Shown: positions 612 to 10,868 of the stretch, piece after piece
How positions within the stretch are numbered: position 1 is the stretch's first letter
Layout of the letters: the number at the start of each line of letters is the position of its first letter
Notes under the pieces: model-generated
The model's input: only the letters and a program-made list of their open reading frames with translations
Told to the model about the DNA's origin: nothing
The model's database searches: none
Made by a program: the position numbers and the translations under genes
Assembly (NCBI GenBank): GCA_038042445.1
Contig: JBBTED010000048.1
Coordinates: 1 to 64,000 of the forward strand
DNA length: 64,000 nucleotides
Origin: Candidatus Firestoneibacteriota bacterium
Lineage (GTDB): Bacteria; Oederibacteriota; D2-FULL-39-29; JBBTED01
Reading direction: 5' to 3'

Positions 612-3527
612 TTAAAACAATGTTCCTTTGATCATATTCTTTGTAATCTTCACATAATTAAATATGTCTATTATATTAGCCCCATTATCTTTCATAGTAT
701 AAAATGTATTTTCGCCCAAAAGCACATATTCCCATTCAGCATTCATTCTGTCCTCTATCTTTAGTTTATTAATTCTTTCTGTCCAATCAATTGTTGCTAA
801 TTGTTTCAATTTAACGTTTTCGACAGAAATCCTATCTTGTCCTTTTGTTTCAACTATATAGATTTTATCTTTTGTTTTTACAAGAAAATCAGGAGAATAA
901 GAAGCTAACATCCCATCAGACCGCACATAATTAATCTTAGCAAAATAATGATAGTTTTCATTTACCTTCACAAATGCTTGCACATTTGTATCAGTATCGC
1001 AAAATTCCATAAATGCCTTTTCAAGTCCACCTTTATTGGATGGATAAGATTGTCTTTCGTAAATAGTTTTCTCTATTTTCAAGCAATATTGTTCCCGCAT
1101 TTTTAAAGGTGTAATTTCCGAAAAATATCTTTTTATAACTATTGCTTCAGAAATATCAATATTATTTTGTAATTCATAAATAGCTTTACTTATTTCCTTG
1201 ATTATATGTTCAACAATTCCTGTTTGAGATAACAAAAGAACACGCCAATTATTTTCGAAGAACGGATCAAAACTCTTATTAAACAATCTTGTACGAACAT
1301 ACGTATCTATTGCTCTTGCAATCTCGACCTGATTTATCTGCATAGATGGATATTCTTTGGTTTTACGAGCGCTTATTTTCACAATCATTGTAGACACAGA
1401 AGAAACAATCTTAGCGATAAATTCATTATAACTTTTAGAATTAAATATATCTGGTTTTACTTCATAATCTCCAAAACGTGTTTTAACTGTCATTTCTTCT
1501 GAAAAGAAAACGTCTCCACCTTTTGGTGCCATTTTTTTAAGCTGCTCTAATTCAAAATAATTAAAAATTGCTAAACTATTAACTCCTATTTTAGTAGGAA
1601 TTAAATTTTCCTCTTTGTCAGTAAGAATAACAGGAAAATAGATATCATAATCCTTATAATTAGTCTTAAGTCCTACTGAAATAATATCTCCTAACACACT
1701 CTGCCCATCTGTTGGCTCTGATTCAATTATTACCACCTCTTTAATTAAATCATCATAAAATTCAATAAACGCAGGGTGTTCTACAATACTTAAAATGTCC
1801 ATATAGTTTTTCGGTTCCTGTTTTTTCTGAAGAAGAGCAATTCTATTTTCTTCTTTACCCTCTTGATATTCTGGTTCACGCCACATAAGACGCAACCCTC
1901 TACCTATAACTTGTTCCAAAAGAATTGGAGCCTGACTAGACCTTAATGGTACAATCACACAAATATTATTGATATCAAAACCCTCTCTTAACATCAATAC
2001 CGAAACAATCACTTTTGGTTGAAAATGTTTATCAACATTAAAAAGTCTTTGTTTCAATTTAAGCCATTCTTCTTGTGAAATAGACCCTTTTTTGTCTGAA
2101 TCAATTTGAACTACATCTTTTTCATCCAATCCTTCATATTTTGTTAAGTATTCCACCACAAATGGTGACACTTTAGTATCTTCGCATATAACAAACATTT
2201 TAGGATATTTAGAATTTTTATCGTTTTTAGTAAGTGAAATAAAATGCTCCTCTAATTTTTTAAGTTTAGCAAGACCAGCACGCAACATTACCTTCTGCCC
2301 TAACGACAAACATATTACTTGATTTCCATCACGTTCTGCCTTAAAATCTAAAGGCAAAGAAGCAATTTCTTTTCTTCTATCAAGTGCTATAGTTTTAACT
2401 AAACCCGAATGAATCGCTGTCCTTAAATCAAAATCAACAACTATGTGTGGGAAATAATGCTTTGTCCTCTTTTGTCCACTTCCTGTAACATCATATGGAG
2501 TAGCTGAAAAATCTATCTGAATAAATTTACTACCTTTTGTAGAACTTATATAAGTAAGACTTTTTTGCCACTCTACTTCCTGAATATCTCCATACAACTT
2601 ATTTTCATGTATGTGATGTGCTTCATCATTAATAACAACCAGATTATTTAATCGTTTTAGAAATTCCAGTTCATTACCTTTAAGATATTGATTGTCTAAT
2701 GTTTCTAAAGAATGTCCAGCAGATATTCCCGGTCTTATTGGTAAAATATCATCTATGATTTTGGATGGATTTTCTATTGGAGATACTTCTATCGGTTCTT
2801 CATCATCTAAACCAGCCAACAAATGCCAATTTGCAATTGCAATTAAACCATCGCCAGTAACCTTTTTACCAATCTCTTCTTTTCTACATACACCGCTTTG
2901 CATAAAACCAAATAATTCTTCTGCAAACCATGGAGGTATAAAAAGAGATTCATATACTTTAAAATCAGAAGAACTAAAATCTCTTTTTCCTTCTTCATTT
3001 TCTTTTCCAAGATAAGCATCTAATAACCTTTCATATACAATTAAACCAGGAGCTACAAGCAAAAAATTTTTAGAATACCTTCCACTTTGTGCTATCTCGT
3101 GTTTAGCATTCAGATACTGCCAAATAAGTAACGCATGCATAACCCATGTTTTGCCTGTTCCTGTTGCCATCTTCATTGCATATTTCGGGTGTTGATATTT
3201 AGATTTTTTTAACTCCACCTTATCCATTTCAGCAAGAATTTCATCATCAACTAAGGAATACATATCAAAAACAGTTGCTGGTTTTAAAATCTCATGTACA
3301 TAAATAGTATTAATAATTGCCTGTTTCTGCCCCTTGTGAAAATTGATATTTCTGTTTTCACAAAAACCATCTTCAAACCAATATTTTAATAAATCTTTAG
3401 TGTATGGAGTAAGTTTTTCTGTGAAGCTTTCATTTTTCAAATCAAATTGACTATTAACAATATCGGTGAGTCGTTTTACAAACCGTAAAGGAATATCTCT
3501 AGTGCCAATATTAAGAGGAGTAGGCAT
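612..3527 (-). CDS. res: Type III restriction enzyme Res subunit (SF2 ATPase plus PD-(D/E)XK nuclease)
   Basis: Walker A MATGTGKT, DEAHH, SATP, LREGFD and EQVIGRGLR motifs; C-terminal YSPDF...VETKG. Confidence 0.92.
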   Translation of the reverse strand: MPTPLNIGTRDIPLRFVKRLTDIVNSQFDLKNESFTEKLTPYTKDLLKYWFEDGFCENRNINFHKGQKQAIINTIYVHEILKPATVFDMYSLVDDEILAEMDKVELKKSKYQHPKYAMKMATGTGKTWVMHALLIWQYLNAKHEIAQSGRYSKNFLLVAPGLIVYERLLDAYLGKENEEGKRDFSSSDFKVYESLFIPPWFAEELFGFMQSGVCRKEEIGKKVTGDGLIAIANWHLLAGLDDEEPIEVSPIENPSKIIDDILPIRPGISAGHSLETLDNQYLKGNELEFLKRLNNLVVINDEAHHIHENKLYGDIQEVEWQKSLTYISSTKGSKFIQIDFSATPYDVTGSGQKRTKHYFPHIVVDFDLRTAIHSGLVKTIALDRRKEIASLPLDFKAERDGNQVICLSLGQKVMLRAGLAKLKKLEEHFISLTKNDKNSKYPKMFVICEDTKVSPFVVEYLTKYEGLDEKDVVQIDSDKKGSISQEEWLKLKQRLFNVDKHFQPKVIVSVLMLREGFDINNICVIVPLRSSQAPILLEQVIGRGLRLMWREPEYQEGKEENRIALLQKKQEPKNYMDILSIVEHPAFIEFYDDLIKEVVIIESEPTDGQSVLGDIISVGLKTNYKDYDIYFPVILTDKEENLIPTKIGVNSLAIFNYFELEQLKKMAPKGGDVFFSEEMTVKTRFGDYEVKPDIFNSKSYNEFIAKIVSSVSTMIVKISARKTKEYPSMQINQVEIARAIDTYVRTRLFNKSFDPFFENNWRVLLLSQTGIVEHIIKEISKAIYELQNNIDISEAIVIKRYFSEITPLKMREQYCLKIEKTIYERQSYPSNKGGLEKAFMEFCDTDTNVQAFVKVNENYHYFAKINYVRSDGMLASYSPDFLVKTKDKIYIVETKGQDRISVENVKLKQLATIDWTERINKLKIEDRMNAEWEYVLLGENTFYTMKDNGANIIDIFNYVKITKNMIKGTLF

Positions 3528-3532
3528 AAATC

Positions 3533-4348
3533 TTAATGTCCTGCAAAAACAGGTTCTCTTTTATTAACCTGTTTAGTAATTTCTGTTATTGTTCCACTTT
3601 TAATATGATAATCTTTATTGTTTCTCTCGCAAAACTGAATTACTTGATAGCTTAAATCATTAAAAAACTCTTTATATTCTTTGTATTCAGATACTTTAGC
3701 ATTATAATTAAGTCTGCCAAATATAATTTTATCAACAAAAGATATTTCTTCAAGAATTTCCAAGAAATCTTGTGGTATTATATTTGGTGTTGGATATGGT
3801 TCTATACTAACCCATGTTTTTAACCCCTTTTTGTGTAAATAATACAAATGCTTAATTCTTTCCTTTATCATTGATGCAAATGGCTCTAACTTTTCCCTAT
3901 AGTCATCTTTTAAAGTTATTAATGTTATTCCAAATTCATTTTCTTTACTTAAATTGGCAAGGCTTATTGGTAATAGACCTTTTGTTAAAGCTGTACATCT
4001 TATATCATCAGCATTAAGCCTCTCAATAATCTTATAAGAAAGTTTTGATATTTCCTCATAACCATACATAAAAGGGTCTGTTGAAAAACAAAGATGAACA
4101 AATTTAATTCTATCTTTGTTTTTAGGTATTTCTTCTTCCAGTAATTCCAAAGCATTAGATACTATTTTAGGTTCAACCCACTCTTGATAATGTTTTACCT
4201 TGCCAAATCTTTTTGCCATCATCATTGCATAACAAGGATACAAACAACCATGAGAACAACCCTCTATATGATTAATAGTATAATCTCCATATTCAACTTC
4301 TGTTTTATAAAGCAATGACTTTCTAATTATTGTTTTCATAATAACCAC
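3533..4348 (-). CDS. Radical SAM protein (SPL/DUF5131-like three-Cys family)
   Basis: GCSHGCLYPCYA (CxxxCxxxC variant), STDPF, LTKG and WVSIEP motifs. Start is GTG 4348 or ATG 4339. Confidence 0.85.
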   Translation of the reverse strand: MVIMKTIIRKSLLYKTEVEYGDYTINHIEGCSHGCLYPCYAMMMAKRFGKVKHYQEWVEPKIVSNALELLEEEIPKNKDRIKFVHLCFSTDPFMYGYEEISKLSYKIIERLNADDIRCTALTKGLLPISLANLSKENEFGITLITLKDDYREKLEPFASMIKERIKHLYYLHKKGLKTWVSIEPYPTPNIIPQDFLEILEEISFVDKIIFGRLNYNAKVSEYKEYKEFFNDLSYQVIQFCERNNKDYHIKSGTITEITKQVNKREPVFAGH

Positions 4349-5433
4349 TATACAAAATATATAATGTCTTTTCCACTAAGTCCTATATTTGTCTTACTTG
4401 TGACTCTTTCCACTTGAATATGTTTTTTCTTTTCCATTTCTTTAAGTGCTTTCCTAATAGCACTCTCAAGATAAGGAACATCATCAATGATACAGCTTAT
4501 TAATTGATCAAACGCAATGGTTTTATTTTTAAATTCTTTCTTCAAATATTCACTAATATTTTTTTGCTCTATTTCTGGAGTATCAAACAGCGTAGGATAA
4601 ATTCTATCTTTACCCAAATATTCAACTTTACCAAAATTATACTTTGCAAAAGCAGATTTCATTACAGAACAAGCAAGAGGATGATTAGCAAGATGAAAAA
4701 GATAATAATATGTTCTTGCACTATTAGGAAATGCTATTCTATAAGGAAAAACATACTGACAGATTGTTTTTAACTTATTCCTAAATAGATTTACTATAGA
4801 TTTTTCTCTTTCATTGCCTTGAAGTTGAACTAATCCCTTCCATTCATTTCCACCAAAAAGATCATTCAGAACACCTTCAATACCTTCTATTAAAAACCTA
4901 TTTATGTTATTAAACATAAAATTAAGCACAATTTCATGAAATGGCATCTGCATTATTCTTTTAAGTGTTTTAAATTTTATTTTAAAACCAAATGGATCTA
5001 TGAAAAAAAATGAAGGATACGGCATATTAAGATTCTTATCAAGTATTTTATTTATTTGATTATCAAAATCCCCTTCTATTATAAATGGTTTGACTTTTAA
5101 CTTTTTTGAATCAAATATTTTTTTAAGGTTATCTACATTTTTCTTGTCTTGTTCAATTATTACTATTTGAACATTTCTGTCTAAACTATTAATGTTTTTT
5201 TCTATTGTTTCAGCTGCAAGTACAGGTGAACCATAAAATATTTTTTTATCTTCATCAATATAAGCTCCACTTCCACCATGGCAATCAAAATAAAAGAGAT
5301 CTTTATTTCTTGAACCAACTATTTTAATCCATTTATCAAAATATTCATTAACAACAAAATGCTTAATTTTTGTTTGCTCTTCGTAATTCCAAAAAAAATA
5401 GTCATATCCAGTTTTATAAATTTTATCCATCAT
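4348..5433 (-). CDS. tcmP: Three-Cys-motif partner protein TcmP (methyltransferase fold, probable C-terminal wHTH)
   Basis: TKIKH..V.EY...[21 protein letters not shown] and YYLFH...H...MK motifs; adjacent to the three-Cys radical SAM gene. Confidence 0.85.
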
Positions 5434-7412
5434 TTTACCTCTGTAATAACTACACTCTCAAAACCAAATACATCAACCGCTTTTATGCAAACTTTACGTT
5501 TATGTTTTATTTTTGGAACGTGCAGTTTTGTGCTTCTTACAACACGCATTGGATCATTATCAGATTCTACATTACCTCTATAATCTTGCCATTTACTACG
5601 AAAAACATCTCCATCATAATCAGGATCAATGCTCCAATATTCAATAAGAGCAAGTGGATCCTTAGAAATTATTTCTTGTAGTTTTTCTTTATCTTTTTCT
5701 TCAAGTGGTAAAGCATCAGGAGAAAGCAAAACATAGTTATCAAGTTCTATTGTAATCTGCTCGCTTTCATTATTTAACTCATCAACACGAATAGGTTTAA
5801 TGGTTAGATATTGAAGTGAAGAAAATCGTATTTTCCCACCTTTTATCAATTTTTGATAAGATGCTTTTGTTTTAAGCTTATCAAGTAAATCCGGGGGAAT
5901 AACAAGCACTTCAATCTGTAGGTCATTTAAATTAAATATAACCTGTCCAATATCTGTTACAAAATTCCACCCAAGCACTATAACTTTTTTCCATCCACCC
6001 ATAAAACTACCGCGAAGTTCCTGTGCACGTCTAAGTGTGTTATAGCCAGTAAGTTTAGAAGGTGAATCAACCATAACAAGTGTACGAGATTCTTTTACAT
6101 ACCCTAAATTCTTTTGAGTAGATTCTGTATCAGAAAAAGGAATAGCTCCATACAAATTCAATACTACATGAGAAAGGTCACTGACACGACGAAACTCACT
6201 CTTTTCAAATTGCTCTTTTTGGTAATCACCTATGGATTGATAAAGAAATGGTTTTGCATCTTGATCAATCAACCGTTTACGCATAATCATACAAGCAGGT
6301 TTTCCAATATCTGCCATTATCCAACGTCTTCCAAGTTTTTCAGCTACAGCACCTGTTGTGCCAGAACCAGCGAAAAAATCAGCTACGATTGAATTATCAT
6401 TAGATGATGCTTTTATTATACGTTCTAATAATTTTTCATTCTTTTCTGTACCATATCCATATTTGAATGTATACGCTTGAATATCCGACCAGTTTGAATC
6501 AGCAAATTTTTCTCGATTTGGCTCAACCCAATATTCTGGTTTTCCTGTTTGTGGATTTAATCTCAACTTATTGTTTTTTATGGCACTATCAATTTTCTCT
6601 TGATTCCACATCCAATGCCTTCCTGAAGGTGGAGACAATAATTTATCAAAAAATTTTCTTGTTTCTCCAGAACCGGGAGCATCCAAAGCATGCCAATAAC
6701 CTTCTTCTAATATTTCAACAGGAATTGGATTTAAAACTATTCTATTACCTTTCGAATAAAGATATATAACATCTGTTGCAACATTGAATCTTTTAATATT
6801 TGGATCGTTTTTTTTAACACGACCAACAATAATCTCATTTTTAAAATTTTCTTTCCCAAATATTTCATCTAAAATAATTTTTACATAATGACCAACATGC
6901 CAATCAATATGAACATAAATAGATCCTGTCTCTGAGAGTAATTCTCTCATTAAAACTAATCTTGGATATATCATTTTTAAATATGAAACAGTTCCATCTT
7001 TCCATGTATCTGAATAAGCAAACTGTTCTATTACTGTTGGTTTTTGTTCAATATCTCCATTTGGAAGAGTAATTTTAGTACGGTAATCAGCTTTAGAATC
7101 AAAAGGTGGGTCAATATAAATTAAATCAATTTTGCCTCGCATAGATGGTAAACCTTGCAATTCATCACCTGCCAATAATGCCTGCATTACTAAAAGATTG
7201 TCGCCATAAATAAGCCTATTGTACCAATTCTGTTTTATATCTTCTTTTACTTTGCCTTTAAAAAGTGTTTGTGTTTCTCTAGATGGTAAAACATACTCAT
7301 TTGTCTGTAATATTATCTTTTCTTTTTCCGAAAGCTCATTTAAAATTCTCTCCGCTTCCTTTTTACCTTCAGCTACAATTTTTGGCAATTGTTCAATCAA
7401 TGATTCAGACAT
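5430..7412 (-). CDS. mod: Type III R-M Mod subunit, beta-class N6-adenine DNA methyltransferase
   Basis: [14 protein letters not shown] (motif IV) ahead of DFFAGSGTT (motif I), intervening TRD and a long C-terminal region; same operon as res. Confidence 0.92.
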
Positions 7413-7451
7413 ATTATTTCTCCCTTAAAACTCCAGAATTTTATTGCTTGT

Positions 7452-7480
7452 ATTATAAGTATTTTAATCCAGATTATCAA
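7452..7480 (-). promoter_or_regulatory. Putative sigma70 promoter of the mod-tcmP-rSAM-res operon
   Basis: Minus strand TTGATA-17 bp-TATAAT, about 40 nt upstream of the mod ATG (SD AAGGGAG). Confidence 0.6.
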
Positions 7481-7607
7481 ATATAATCCAACTTACTAAT
7501 CTTTATATTTTACCAACAACTAAAGAGAATCTATTAACATTTTATCATGAAGAAGAAATAATGAATCTAACAAAATTAAATATTTCAGAGATATACTCTC
7601 ACACTCA

Positions 7608-8222
7608 TTAGTGAGTTATATTACATATTTTGCACTTAGCATTATATTTCATAATCTCTTTGTCATTCTTTATGTATTTGAATCTATTTTTTCTTGATTG
7701 AAATGCATCCTCAATCCAAGTTCGCAATTCAGTACCATTTGTAGGCGAGAACTTATATCTTGCATAACAATCTTTATGTTCTTTATTCCAATTATCTACA
7801 AAACGTTCTGGCAAATGTACACTAGATAAATTAGGTAATAATATACCCAAAAGACCATTCGGTAAATTATCCGTTCCCTGTCTTAAACTCGCTTTAATTT
7901 CCCAATCAACAAAACGCCTACCATGAGTACAAGAACCAAGAAGTACTATAGTTACTGTTGAATCTTGAATGTACCTTTTTCGTATTTGCGCAATTACATA
8001 TTCTGGATTATCACTATTAATAAAATCATCTTCATCGCTGACACCTAAAGCTTTCGGAATAAATATTTTTTCTCTTTCAGTCCACCTATATAAAAATAAT
8101 TTAACTTTATCATCATCCCTGTGGCAAAAGGATATAAAAACTTTCCTTTTGGGTTCTTGTTTACGTATTGACATTTCGCGTAGAATCTTTGCAAATCCTG
8201 TTTTCCTTCTTTCTTCTTCCAT
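7608..8222 (-). CDS. TIR-domain protein (Thoeris ThsB/DUF1863-like) with a C-terminal CxxC..H tail
   Basis: KVFISFCHRDD, DSTVTIVLLG and RRFVDWEIKASL (catalytic Glu present). Start moved from 8267 to ATG 8222, which follows a GGAG SD. Confidence 0.88.
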   Translation of the reverse strand: MEEERRKTGFAKILREMSIRKQEPKRKVFISFCHRDDDKVKLFLYRWTEREKIFIPKALGVSDEDDFINSDNPEYVIAQIRKRYIQDSTVTIVLLGSCTHGRRFVDWEIKASLRQGTDNLPNGLLGILLPNLSSVHLPERFVDNWNKEHKDCYARYKFSPTNGTELRTWIEDAFQSRKNRFKYIKNDKEIMKYNAKCKICNITH

Positions 8223-8340
8223 TTTTAATCTCCACACTTTCTGCAAAGGTAATTCATACATAATCAAATATGCATCCTAAAACATATTGTGAAACCATGG
8301 ATTATAGTCATTGAAAATTATGTTAATTCTTTACATCAAA

Positions 8341-8889
8341 CTATTTCGGCAATAATTGCGGCTTTTTATTAACATCCACTAATTTATATACCTCAACAAG
8401 TTTTGTCTGTAACTTTCTAATCAATACCCTCATATTCTTCCAATCTTCTAAGAACCTCTGACAATATGGATACTTTGTTTGTCTCTTAATAGGAGGTAAT
8501 CTCTTAGCTTTTTTGCCACAATATTCCCACCAATGTCTATAATCCGACTGCCATTTCTCTAAAAAAGGTCTAAGAACATTTACCATTAAATCATTTATAA
8601 TAATCCCCAAATGGTTACTTTTACTTTTCTTAAGTTGACCAACTGGAAATTTTCTCATTATACTTCTGCATTCTCTAAAGAAATTATGGACAGAATCAAG
8701 ACTTTCAATAAATACTTCTCCTTTAAAATTTTCACACTTGTGGTCATTGCTCTTCCCAGTTACGGACAATCTAGTACTAATTTCAGTATACAATTCCCAT
8801 GCACATTGCCGATCTTCCTCTGAAATTTCTGCTTGTATTTCTAAAAAACCAAGATTCAATGTTAAATTCAATTTTTTCAGTTCTGGCAT
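8341..8889 (-). CDS. Hypothetical soluble, mostly helical protein between two TIR genes
   Basis: 182 aa ORF with SD AGGAG. Motifs AWELYTEISTR and VLRPFLEKW; no TM segment or catalytic motif that I can assign. Confidence 0.8.
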   Translation of the reverse strand: MPELKKLNLTLNLGFLEIQAEISEEDRQCAWELYTEISTRLSVTGKSNDHKCENFKGEVFIESLDSVHNFFRECRSIMRKFPVGQLKKSKSNHLGIIINDLMVNVLRPFLEKWQSDYRHWWEYCGKKAKRLPPIKRQTKYPYCQRFLEDWKNMRVLIRKLQTKLVEVYKLVDVNKKPQLLPK

Positions 8890-8900
8890 ATAATCTCCTA

Positions 8901-9365
8901 TTAATCAGGATCCTTATCTATCCATTTATCAAGCTTTTCCGGATTCCAATTCATTACTTCTGTTGATCGTTCACCTAATGCAGATGGTTTCTTAGCATTA
9001 TCACGATCTTTAAGTCGCATACCTCTTATTCGTTGCCAAGTTTTATCTCCAGATAAGTCATATTTCATATTATAAAATGTTTTAATCTCCCAATCAACCC
9101 ATTCACTATCAAAAGTAGAAGGACCAATAAGCACAACAAGTTTTGAAGCATTATCAAACTTAGAAATAATTTCCTCCCGTACTGGTTTAGACCTATCATC
9201 ATTTGGTGGATAAATAATTGGTTTACCACTTTTATCTAGAACTGGATCCTTTAACGAATGATCTCTAAAATCCAAAACATGATCTGGATTGTTATTTAAA
9301 AGCTTAAATCCATTCACCTGCGAAACATCACCATGGTCATAACTAATAAAGACATTCTTACTCAT
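8901..9365 (-). CDS. TIR-domain protein (ThsB/DUF1863-like)
   Basis: NVFISYDHGD, ASKLVVLIG and SEWVDWEI (catalytic Glu); strong SD GAGGAGGTG. Confidence 0.88.
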   Translation of the reverse strand: MSKNVFISYDHGDVSQVNGFKLLNNNPDHVLDFRDHSLKDPVLDKSGKPIIYPPNDDRSKPVREEIISKFDNASKLVVLIGPSTFDSEWVDWEIKTFYNMKYDLSGDKTWQRIRGMRLKDRDNAKKPSALGERSTEVMNWNPEKLDKWIDKDPD

Positions 9366-9382
9366 AAAATATCACCTCCTCA

Positions 9383-10012
9383 TTATAATTTTCCGATTGT
9401 TGTAACAACAATGCCTTGAATTTTAAAGTCCCTTGTTAATATTATTGGTTTATGTGTTTCATTCGTAGATCTGGGTTTTAAAACAATTGCCCCTGCCTCA
9501 CAAAAAAATTCTTTAATAGTTGCCTCATCATCAATAAGTGCAACAACCATATCCCCATTATTAGCATTAGGCTGCTGACGAACTAAAACAATATCTCCAT
9601 CATTAATTTTATTTTGATTCATAGAATCACCTTTTGCTCTAAGCAAAAAATATTTGTATGGTGGCTTAGCTATATCAGTTGACACCAATATCTCTGCACT
9701 AACATTTACTTCTGCTAAAATAGGACTACCACACGAGACCACACCAACCAAAGGAACTTTTACAGTTTGAGCACATTCCTTGTTATTAATCTCTATATCA
9801 ATATCTTTTACAAGTTGTAAAGTTGTATCTGATTTTCTTTTAATCCATCCCTTCTTAATTAAATTATCTATGTAAATAGAAATGGAACGGGGTGATTTAT
9901 ATTCAAACTCTTTCATAAGTTGACGAACAGATGGACTTTCACCTACATCTATCAAATGGTTACGTATCGCCCTTAATACTCCTGTTTCTTTCTTTGATAA
10001 TCCTATTGCCAT
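9383..10012 (-). CDS. lexA: LexA-family repressor (wHTH plus S24 peptidase)
   Basis: SPSVRQL..LIKKGWI wHTH, cleavage loop VSCG (Cys-Gly), catalytic GDSM Ser and ATIK Lys. Confidence 0.92.
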   Translation of the reverse strand: MAIGLSKKETGVLRAIRNHLIDVGESPSVRQLMKEFEYKSPRSISIYIDNLIKKGWIKRKSDTTLQLVKDIDIEINNKECAQTVKVPLVGVVSCGSPILAEVNVSAEILVSTDIAKPPYKYFLLRAKGDSMNQNKINDGDIVLVRQQPNANNGDMVVALIDDEATIKEFFCEAGAIVLKPRSTNETHKPIILTRDFKIQGIVVTTIGKL

Positions 10013-10033
10013 TTTTATTTACCCCCTCTTCAG

Positions 10034-10074
10034 TATACATACACCATTATACACAATACTATACATCTTGTCAA
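10034..10074 (-). promoter_or_regulatory. Consensus sigma70 promoter of the lexA-TIR operon overlapped by TGTATA repeats
   Basis: Minus strand TTGACA (10069-10074), 17 bp, TATAAT (10046-10051). TGTATA copies at 10034-39, 10048-53 and 10060-65. Confidence 0.8.
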
Positions 10075-10136
10075 TAAAATAATGTGGAGAGTTTCTCCAA
10101 AATTAAGTTGCGAAATGATATAAATCCATTAAAATC

Positions 10137-10161
10137 GAGCAAACCTAAAGGTTTGCCCTAC
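10137..10161 (-). repeat. GTAG-type REP singlet
   Basis: Minus strand GTAG-G-GCAAACC-TTTA-GGTTTGC. Confidence 0.8.
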
Positions 10162-10281
10162 TTTTTATATTATATATATGAACAAAATAGCAGGTAATTT
10201 TGAAAAATGGGGAAATTCCACTTACATTTGTATTGACATTTCAAATTACATATTAAATAATACATCTGGAGGTGATGTTAA

Positions 10282-10566
10282 ATGATAACTGTAAAAGAAA
10301 ATACAACATTGGTTGGAATCACTGAATTGAGACACAAGATAGATGAAATTTTAGAAGTGACCAAAAAAAACAATGTAATAATTGAAAAAAGAAATAAACC
10401 AATTGCAGTGCTTTTTCCGATAGACGAATATATAAAAATTCAAGAGATATTAGATATGGTAGAAGATAAAATGTTTGGACATATTGCTAAAGAAAGATAT
10501 GAAAAAAGTTCTTCAAAAAATTATATTTCGTTAGAATCTGCCAAGAAAAAGGTCGGAATAAAATAA
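10282..10566 (+). CDS. Phd/YefM-family antitoxin
   Basis: VGITELR...IL......VIIEKRNKPIAVL motif; SD GGAGGTG; TTGACA at 10233-10238. Confidence 0.88.
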   Translation: MITVKENTTLVGITELRHKIDEILEVTKKNNVIIEKRNKPIAVLFPIDEYIKIQEILDMVEDKMFGHIAKERYEKSSSKNYISLESAKKKVGIK

Positions 10567-10868
10567 TGTGGAATATTGAAATACATACTTTAGTCTTTGA
10601 AGAAGATTTTAAGAAAATAGACTCCTCTATGCAACAAGTAATTCTAAAAGCCATAGAAAAAAAATTAAGTGTAGATCCAGAAAATTATGGTACACCATTA
10701 AGAAATGAATTAAAAGGTTTCTGGAAACTGCCAATATCAAATTATCGCGTTATTTACAGGATAGAAAAACAACAAGTAAAAATTCTGGTTGTTAAAATTG
10801 GAATAAGAAGAGATTTTGAGGTTTACAAAGAAATGATTCCACGAATGAAAAAATTATTCATTTCATGA
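10566..10868 (+). CDS. RelE/ParE-family toxin
   Basis: G.PLR.ELKGFWKL.ISNYRVIYRI...V.IG.RR..VY; TAATG overlap with the antitoxin. Confidence 0.9.
   Translation: MWNIEIHTLVFEEDFKKIDSSMQQVILKAIEKKLSVDPENYGTPLRNELKGFWKLPISNYRVIYRIEKQQVKILVVKIGIRRDFEVYKEMIPRMKKLFIS

Follow-up and report, generated by a model that had tools for sequence, protein, structure and literature searches.

A lexA-led operon with two ThsB-type TIR genes and a conserved helical partner gene: a candidate Thoeris-like module in a Firestoneibacteriota genome

Does an operon that begins with lexA and continues with two TIR genes encode an anti-phage system, and is that system controlled by LexA? The question is raised by positions 7608 to 10074 of a 64,000-nucleotide stretch of contig JBBTED010000048.1 (Candidatus Firestoneibacteriota bacterium, assembly GCA_038042445.1); the whole stretch is called the window here. 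The minus strand carries a promoter followed by lexA, a TIR gene (TIR1), a gene for a 182-aa protein (Mid182) and a second TIR gene (TIR2). On balance we favour, with modest confidence, the reading that TIR1, Mid182 and TIR2 form a Thoeris-like anti-phage module that belongs to the lexA operon and is transcribed from the promoter of lexA. An earlier note on this DNA had proposed a non-canonical Thoeris-like system under a dedicated LexA. The linkage to TIR genes and the absence of a described effector held up, whereas the dedicated LexA did not. The features of the locus are as follows.

10046..10074, minus strand: sigma-70-type promoter, TTGACA-17 nt-TATAAT, 12/12 consensus match
10033..10064, minus strand: three GTATA(N) elements (GTATAG, GTATAA overlapping the -10, GTATAC), a candidate LexA operator over and after the promoter
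9383..10012, minus strand: lexA, 209 aa, winged helix-turn-helix (wHTH) LexA DNA-binding domain plus S24 self-cleaving peptidase domain
8901..9365, minus strand: TIR1, 154 aa, ThsB-type TIR protein with the motif SEWVDWEI
8341..8889, minus strand: Mid182, 182 aa, conserved helical protein outside the described families, proposed to be an effector activated by a signal
7608..8222, minus strand: TIR2, 204 aa from ATG, ThsB-type TIR protein with the motif RRFVDWEI

The partnership between TIR proteins and Mid182 was very well supported. We surveyed gene neighbourhoods using one genome per species, and 53 Mid182 loci were returned. They came from Planctomycetia, Armatimonadota, Acidobacteriota-type and Desulfobacterota-type metagenome-assembled genomes, Binatia, beta- and gammaproteobacteria, Verrucomicrobiota, Zixibacteria, Anaerolineae and others. 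When all open reading frames (ORFs) of these loci were searched with TIR profiles derived from them, 48 of the 53 had one or more TIR ORFs on the Mid182 strand within 1.5 kb. The same-strand ORF directly upstream of Mid182 was scanned in 50 loci, leaving out L011 and L045 (upstream ORF on the opposite strand) and L018 (contig edge). It was assigned as follows.

PF08937 over the cut-off: 33 loci
TIR_2: 1 locus
Nmad2: 5 loci
Transposase, phosphoenolpyruvate carboxylase and polyhydroxyalkanoate-granule protein: 1 locus each
No family: 8 loci

In all five Nmad2 loci a ThsB-type TIR was located one gene beyond Nmad2, giving the order TIR, Nmad2, Mid182. TIR genes were also found downstream of Mid182 or two genes upstream in L006, L041, L045, L049, L056 and L022. 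At least two TIR ORFs were present in 21/53 loci, although those of L008 and L012 were split fragments of one gene, and at least three were present in 5/53. Where several TIR genes surrounded one Mid182, they numbered two to four and belonged to differing families (PF08937 and PF13676). In IMG/VR a TIR preceded Mid182 in four of five loci. Metagenomes yielded only two short loci in a single-protein scan; a TIR was upstream in one of them, which had three TIR-like genes around Mid182. Thus, the tie of the 182-aa gene to TIR genes that the earlier note had proposed recurred widely (48/53 loci, with PF08937 in 33 of the 50 upstream ORFs), whereas a tie to lexA did not appear in other Mid182 loci, as detailed below.

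The conservation of the two partners was unequal. Across phyla, Mid182 was 42-64% identical to the window copy and the adjacent TIRs were about 25-51% identical. This is the pattern expected for a conserved effector with diversifying sensors. Mid182 loci sit in defence islands: the neighbours included type I restriction-modification (R-M) subunits, type IIG enzymes, a HEC-05/GmrSD-type nuclease, AbiP, TIR-NLR and SIR2 proteins.

Two minor layouts were seen in the survey. In the Thiosymbion-labelled loci L051, L056 and L057, SLOG cluster-2 genes (PF18163, 1.4e-44 and 6.3e-39) followed Mid182, and in L051 and L057, both of which had no TIR, this gene was directly downstream. In L056 a 413-aa TIR_2 protein came first. 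The layout of these three loci recalls the multi-TIR plus SLOG layout of type III Thoeris in the available part of Yirmiya et al. (2025). The Nmad2 loci (L007, L015, L034, L038 and L053; PF18753, up to 1.9e-74) formed the second layout. The genes preceding TIR-Nmad2-Mid182 resembled thymidylate-synthase-type and thymine-hypermodification-type enzymes, as judged from their sequences by eye.

The Nmad2 loci bear on a reading in which the ThsB-like TIR and Mid182 serve nucleotide or DNA-base modification metabolism and have no immune role. The order TIR-Nmad2-Mid182 with such flanking ORFs in five loci would suit it, as would the position of the window unit, which abuts a methyltransferase-TcmP-radical-SAM cluster. 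However, at least 43 of the 53 loci had no such genes and lay among restriction and abortive-infection genes instead, and base-modification cassettes are themselves typical of defence islands. We regard a non-immune role as very improbable.

Both TIR proteins of the window belong to the ThsB type. TIR1 matched PF08937 (ThsB_TIR) at 1.9e-16 in Pfam and PADLOC ThsB at 3.8e-12, and TIR2 matched PF08937 at 2.6e-15 and also the PADLOC ThsB models. These two were the only ThsB-type TIRs in the genome. The motifs WVDWEI and FVDWEI, in which the earlier note had recognized a retained catalytic-site glutamate, were both present. In an alignment with the solved ThsB of Bacillus cereus (6lhy), RRFVDWEI of TIR2 fell on RRWVRYEI, with the glutamate of WEI on that of YEI, which we take to be the catalytic residue of ThsB. 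TIR1 aligned to the solved TIR chain 8fz9 (1.4e-4). TIR2 was the copy most like the TIRs that precede Mid182 elsewhere, to which it was 30-51% identical in tblastn.

Mid182 itself had no match in Pfam, PADLOC (E<=0.01), NCBIfam or PHROGs, and 28 close and 56 distant members of its family likewise matched no described effector family. The statement that no described Thoeris effector is recognizable in the unit was borne out in these collections. A word-indexed search revealed 476 homologues at E<=1e-3, nearly all of 171-192 aa, unnamed and without Pfam domains, and a full HMMER scan gave 253 representatives at 50% identity. The family occurs in Pseudomonadota, Desulfobacterota, Verrucomicrobiota, Planctomycetota, Armatimonadota, Acidobacteriota and other phyla; the plasmid and GenBank-phage collections searched gave no match. 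In an alignment of 28 members from many phyla, 44 columns were invariant, and the conserved motifs were DRQCAWELYTE, GE..ESL, IMRKFPVG, HLG, LRPFLEKWQ.DYRHWW, RQ..YP and DW..R.

The AlphaFold2 model of Mid182 (mean predicted local distance difference test score, pLDDT, 80) was a four-helix bundle with helices at 24-39, 60-80, 94-123 and 143-168 and a low-confidence N-terminus of 21 residues. Foldseek against the PDB found no specific structural relative (best E 0.28, including weak HEPN-like rows), and the best VIA-align match (Z 10.9) was to cytochrome oxidase subunit III-type bundles, within the chance range for helical bundles. An identity as a HEPN protein was considered but is not favoured: LRPxLxxWH of the distant relatives contains R-x6-H, and the Mid182 subfamily shows Q at the corresponding place. 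Some distant relatives (P0128, P0130, P0150, P0205, P0190, P0206 and P0229) have fused or tandem architectures, with N-terminal membrane helices, two to three tandem domain copies, or a receiver-like N-terminal domain. A separate case was L046, in which a single frame (4882-6489) encodes an RtcR-like sigma-54 activator (Sigma54_activat 1.1e-65) and, continuous with it, a Mid182 domain that starts after residue 18, the product of either a fusion or a rearrangement that truncated Mid182.

Structure prediction also suggested that Mid182 associates with itself. Co-folding of four copies gave scores of 0.82, 0.84 and 0.88 (median 0.84), comparatively, three unrelated-protein controls gave 0.00. The runs agreed in at least 86% of contacts, with partner pLDDT of at least 78. 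When the method was calibrated, 20 of 30 solved homo-pairs reached the mark, as did 1 of 23 proteins whose solved structures are single chains; this calibration used two copies and alignments of its own, and applies only roughly to the four-copy run of Mid182. Each copy used two different faces, one formed by residues 24-39, 57-62, 69, 77, 129-134 and 168-176 and the other by residues 72-84, 93-103 and 111-123. Two different faces per copy imply a head-to-tail assembly of the kind that forms rings or filaments. Of the 44 invariant residues, 21 belonged to the interface of 46 residues, compared with 11.1 expected (p = 1.6e-4); R27, W31, R75, R79, H93 and E111 are invariant interface residues. 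The models therefore predict that Mid182 self-associates head-to-tail. Such an assembly would resemble the rings or filaments with charged inter-protomer pockets seen in AlphaFold 3 models of ThsF, ThsG and ThsH, according to the available part of Yirmiya et al. (2025, 10.64898/2025.12.03.692087).

These results should be weighed against an abortive-infection pair that works without a diffusible signal. The TIRs would then be NAD+-depleting toxins and Mid182 a phage sensor, inhibitor or scaffold, with LexA control unchanged. The tight TIR-Mid182 pairing would be expected of physical partners no less than of a signalling system, catalytic and membrane motifs are absent from Mid182, and many bacterial TIRs are NAD+-depleting effectors rather than signal makers in the accessible portion of Yirmiya et al. 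(2025). However, two to four differing TIRs per Mid182 in 21/53 loci is a known Thoeris pattern, Mid182 is better conserved than the TIRs, and the membrane helices on its distant relatives are of the kind found on effectors. We consider such a pair unlikely, and keep to the reading of Mid182 as the effector of a Thoeris-like module.

How close is this module to the named Thoeris systems? The part of Yirmiya et al. (2025, 10.64898/2025.12.03.692087) available to us describes types I-XI and 18 putative types, and names as effectors SIR2-SLOG, Macro-TM, SLOG, caspase-like, DUF2270, DUF6650, SLATT, CMP hydrolase-TPR, ion channel and hydrolase proteins. It also states that several ThsB sensors can serve one effector. 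So far as these systems are described there, the window module is similar to them in its ThsB-type TIRs with the glutamate motif, in the combination of a conserved partner with one to several TIRs, in its occurrence in defence islands, and in having a small partner that is predicted to self-assemble. Unlike types I-VIII, X and XI in that account, its Mid182 matches no corresponding effector model. The earlier note had allowed that the trio might be an already named system. This was answered in the negative for PADLOC and for the effectors named for types I-VIII, X and XI in the same portion of the source. The Mid182 family may be among the remaining effectors, those of type IX (ThsJ) and of the 18 putative types that are listed as untested there. 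The module also differs from Thoeris in general in being the distal part of a lexA operon. Neither a LexA-headed TIR operon nor the Mid182 family was described in the literature that we searched, a limited collection. Among the PADLOC candidate systems, TIR1 and TIR2 weakly matched PDC-M50B (1.8e-9 and 4.5e-6), more weakly than the ThsB models, and the second component of PDC-M50 was not shared, as Mid182 matched no PADLOC model at E<=0.01.

The nearest named candidate was ThsG. This is DUF6650 (PF20355), the type VI Thoeris effector with the signal 2'cADPR, a small protein with or without membrane helices for which a ring-shaped oligomer has been modelled (Yirmiya et al. 2025, 10.64898/2025.12.03.692087, in the part available). 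As far as that part describes ThsG, Mid182 is like it in being small, all-helical and without a known catalytic domain, in having some relatives with N-terminal membrane helices, and in its predicted oligomer with conserved inter-protomer surfaces. Mid182 is unlike ThsG in showing no sequence or profile similarity to it and in its own motifs (DRQCAWELYTE, IMRKFPVG, HLG and LRPFLEKWQ-DYRHWW).

One could therefore ask whether Mid182 is a very divergent DUF6650 protein and the unit a variant of type VI Thoeris signalling with 2'cADPR. In a protein-language-model atlas DUF6650 was the nearest named cluster (rank 9, score 0.86, 192/256 features shared). Its model (pLDDT 81) was, like that of Mid182, a four-helix bundle after a low-confidence N-terminus of about 20-25 residues (about 25 in DUF6650), and many generic bundle matches were common to both. 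The small size of ThsG, its variable membrane helices and its ring model, as given in the same portion of Yirmiya et al. (2025), would also fit. However, four-helix bundles are a common arrangement, and PF20355 matched 0/28 close and 0/56 distant members of the Mid182 family, even at E<=10 or E<=1. For a profile comparison we took two genes from proteobacterial genomes and their homologues, all annotated PF20355, of which 34 were aligned; hhalign of the Mid182 alignments against this set gave probabilities of 0.4% and 1.6%. DUF6650 was found in 0/99 genomes of the phylum of the window, and the control genomes likewise gave no signal, so that this negative carries little weight. Membership of Mid182 in DUF6650 was thus unsupported, the likeness being that of generic four-helix bundles. 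We hold a divergent ThsG to be decidedly unlikely; at most, Mid182 and DUF6650 work alike.

We then turn to the second half of the question, the link with LexA. The gaps were 17 nt between lexA and TIR1, 11 nt between TIR1 and Mid182, and 118 nt between Mid182 and TIR2 when the latter starts at the ATG at 8222. The longest ORF of TIR2 begins at TTG 8267, and ATG 8222 has GGAG 7 nt upstream. Shine-Dalgarno-like GGAG or GGAGG was found close upstream of all genes from lexA to TIR2, and no terminator-like site was found on the minus strand between lexA and the end of TIR2. In a consensus scan of 7300-10300 the lexA promoter was the sole 12/12 match. An 11/12 promoter-like site on the minus strand at 7480..7452 is located ahead of the next gene, a methyltransferase, so the transcription unit probably ends after TIR2. 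The coordinates and the promoter scan thus agree with the single minus-strand unit, with spacings of 17, 11 and 118 nt, that had been described for this locus. In related genomes the -35 element TTGACA stands at the same place before the orthologous lexA genes, and GTATA-type repeats recur there too. This recurrence is firmer evidence of a real promoter than the consensus match by itself.

The LexA of the window matched Peptidase_S24 (PF00717, 1.4e-28) and LexA_DNA_bind (PF01726, 9.1e-09) in Pfam, and scored 153.7 bits on TIGR00498, the NCBI LexA equivalog, compared with a cut-off of 110.95. Across ten aligned LexA copies the columns of C94-G95, S130 (in GDSM) and K167 (in TIKEF) were invariant, and the general patterns were a C-G pair, the serine of G-D/N/T-S-M and the lysine of T-I/V-K-E. 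From knowledge of LexA and UmuD, we take the C-G pair to be the cleavage site and the serine and lysine to be the catalytic dyad. By its sequence, this protein bears all hallmarks of a self-cleaving LexA.

It was matched in 91 of the 99 species genomes of the phylum. Copies with 46-59% identity had recA behind them in 21 loci, with nothing, a 91-95 aa ORF or a 23S-IVP gene in between (L062, L063, L067, L069, L071, L073, L076, L083, L086 and L088; L064, L065, L066, L072, L077-L080, L082, L100 and L102). In the genome of the window, recA is on another contig (C50), behind a gene for a 432-aa ATPase. A maximum-likelihood tree of LexA had an unresolved base and placed the window copy in no well-supported clade; its nearest rows were a methyltransferase-linked copy of genome G024 and recA-linked copies of G088-G090. 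By this tree it may be the housekeeping copy, a paralogue tied to cargo genes, or both. Since the LexA cut-off was passed and orthologues precede recA in 21 loci, the window LexA resembles the master repressor of the SOS response, or a close paralogue of it, more than a regulator specific to one system. In addition, a LexA-like gene was found near 0/60 other Mid182 loci within the flanks examined, which implies that SOS control is no part of the general design of the system. On these three grounds the proposal of a dedicated LexA was not upheld.

Some variation around these regulators may be recorded here. The 91-95 aa ORF, which has no Pfam match, was conserved between lexA and recA in L062-L066, L086 and L102. 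In L083, L084, L086, L100, L102, L085 and L081, an excisionase-type HTH fused to S24 replaces the LexA wHTH in the regulator preceding recA, and the promoter region of these regulators had repeated ATGACAA elements, not TATAC/GTATA. The genome of the window has two LexA-like genes, the window copy and a divergent copy on contig C65 (308-907, 199 aa), which scored 94.9 bits on TIGR00498, below the cut-off, and was 26-30% identical. The latter is followed, after 18 nt, by a gene (926-2794) for a 622-aa Eco57I-type methyltransferase or type IIG-like protein (PADLOC MTase_II 1.4e-147).

The promoter region contains a candidate operator. The lexA promoters of relatives have TTGACA-N4-5-TATAC-N5-GTATA, an inverted repeat running into the -10, and the repeat TATAC-N5-GTATA was also common to the cargo-linked LexA copies described below. 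The window counterpart is TTGACA-AGATG-TATAG-N6-GTATAAT, and a perfect GTATAC comes next at 10033-10038. Both TTGACA and a TATAC element are also present in the promoter of recA in this genome. Judged by homology, LexA autoregulation is likely. TGTATAC was not clearly enriched in the window, with 12 sites found compared with 7.2 expected, and 7 of 100 shuffles reached 12.

LexA genes also stand directly ahead of other defence cassettes in the phylum, as listed below by locus and genome.

L099 (G082): lexA, then Dsr1 (PADLOC 7e-265)
L074 (G077): lexA, then DarT and DarG (6e-42 and 7e-80)
L101 (G089): lexA, then an AlwI-type endonuclease and a methyltransferase
L070/L099 (G082): lexA, then a Dam-type methyltransferase and a 449-aa protein
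L061 (G024): lexA, then an N6/N4 methyltransferase
L098 (G082): lexA, then, after 3 nt, a TIR_2 protein and a 796-aa unknown protein

The copies heading these cassettes carry the LexA-type wHTH, and in G077, G082 and G089 they are additional to a recA-linked regulator. Five LexA-like genes were counted in G082, four of them on one contig. SOS coupling of the TIR-Mid182 unit is plausible, and gains indirect support because LexA genes of the same type head other defence cassettes in the phylum. A broader claim would be that LexA paralogues have been recurrently recruited as the first gene of unrelated immune cassettes in this phylum, and that Mid182 is a new class of Thoeris effector, soluble and polymerising head-to-tail, whose inter-protomer pockets read a nucleotide made by the TIRs. 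We put this forward tentatively, as a conjecture that may well prove wrong.

Might the adjacency to lexA have no regulatory meaning? A defence island might have landed in a variable slot after lexA, with the TIRs expressed from weak promoters of their own or by constitutive read-through. The slot downstream of lexA holds a small ORF and recA in relatives, and here recA is on contig C50. LexA is missing from all 60 further Mid182 neighbourhoods, the unit is succeeded on its strand by a large R-M and modification cluster, and the operator-like repeats are degenerate. However, only 17 nt separate lexA from TIR1, the ribosome-binding site there is strong, and there is no terminator-like site. Moreover, extra LexA copies head other defence systems in G077, G082 and G089, where a separate regulator stands before recA, and the repetition argues for selection of the arrangement. 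An accidental neighbourhood seems to us improbable, about as much so as the abortive-infection pair. Transcription of the module as part of the lexA operon is still preferred.

If this is correct, the module might work in the following way. The TIR proteins would sense phage infection, and having two different ones would allow more kinds of phage to be detected. They would turn NAD+ into an ADP-ribose-derived signal. Mid182, as a soluble four-helix-bundle protein, would assemble head-to-tail into a ring or filament and bind the signal in inter-protomer pockets lined by invariant Arg, Trp, His and Glu. Signal-bound Mid182 would then arrest or kill the cell; distant relatives carry N-terminal membrane helices. 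Basal expression of TIR and Mid182 would accompany that of lexA. RecA filaments on single-stranded DNA (ssDNA), arising from phage replication, restriction damage or prophage induction, would cause LexA self-cleavage and derepress the whole operon. We infer both the direction of the pathway, from the TIR signal to execution by Mid182, and the SOS induction.

DNA-damage-responsive control of defence genes is exerted by CapH/CapP of the CBASS systems and by WYL-domain regulators such as BrxR. The unit studied here is similar in having a DNA-damage- or ssDNA-responsive repressor at the head of an immune operon. Unlike those cases, the repressor has the canonical LexA architecture (wHTH plus S24) and is of the type preceding recA; it is neither a protease-repressor pair specific to one system nor a WYL protein. 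LexA is listed among the global regulators linked to defence genes in the accessible part of a 2025 preprint (10.64898/2025.12.14.694197).

Several points weigh against the module as we read it. The effector role of Mid182 is argued by analogy, as the protein has no recognizable catalytic or membrane domain and its predicted four-helix bundle has no specific structural relative. A Mid182 that served a TIR NADase as sensor, regulator or antitoxin would produce the same linkage. No TIR was found within 1.5 kb of Mid182 in 5 of the 53 loci (L011, L021, L046, L051 and L057). The 118 nt gap ahead of TIR2 could hide an unrecognized promoter. The repeat in the window is a degenerate form of the motif of its relatives, with one base changed and one extra, and exact TATAC-N5-GTATA was not enriched in this genome, with 4 sites compared with 13 for the reversed control. 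The absence of LexA from the other Mid182 loci belongs here as well.

What would follow if the reading is right can be stated for each part. Should Mid182 prove to be a signal-activated effector, TIR immunity would gain an effector family that is widespread and unexplored by experiment. Mid182 would be the second small soluble helical effector beside ThsG, and comparing the two could show their mode of action. With LexA standing before Dsr1, DarTG, R-M and TIR cassettes in one phylum, the use of the SOS signal to raise immunity, and the number of systems sharing this input, become directly testable. If LexA recruitment is true, RecA-sensed DNA damage would be a general "alarm" input that boosts a layer of immunity, within a phylum that is small and uncultivated.

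The genes around the unit were also annotated. Four of them follow it on the same strand.

5430-7412, minus strand: type III-like DNA methyltransferase, 660 aa (PADLOC MTase_III 2e-75)
4348-5433, minus strand: TcmP three-Cys-motif partner protein (TIGR04474 1.9e-50)
3533-4348, minus strand: radical-SAM protein, 271 aa, with CxxxCxxC (Radical_SAM)
612-3527, minus strand: Res-type helicase-nuclease, 971 aa (ResIII and REase_III)

With its own promoter-like site at 7452-7480, the defence cluster at 612..7480 is probably a separate unit. Its genes may encode a restriction system supplemented by a pair of DNA-modification proteins, and the cluster also gave PADLOC PDC-M30/M41 candidate matches. A Phd/YefM antitoxin-ParE toxin pair is located at 10282-10868 on the plus strand, divergent from the lexA promoter region, and a MazE-like antitoxin ORF occupies 199-456 on the minus strand at the contig end.

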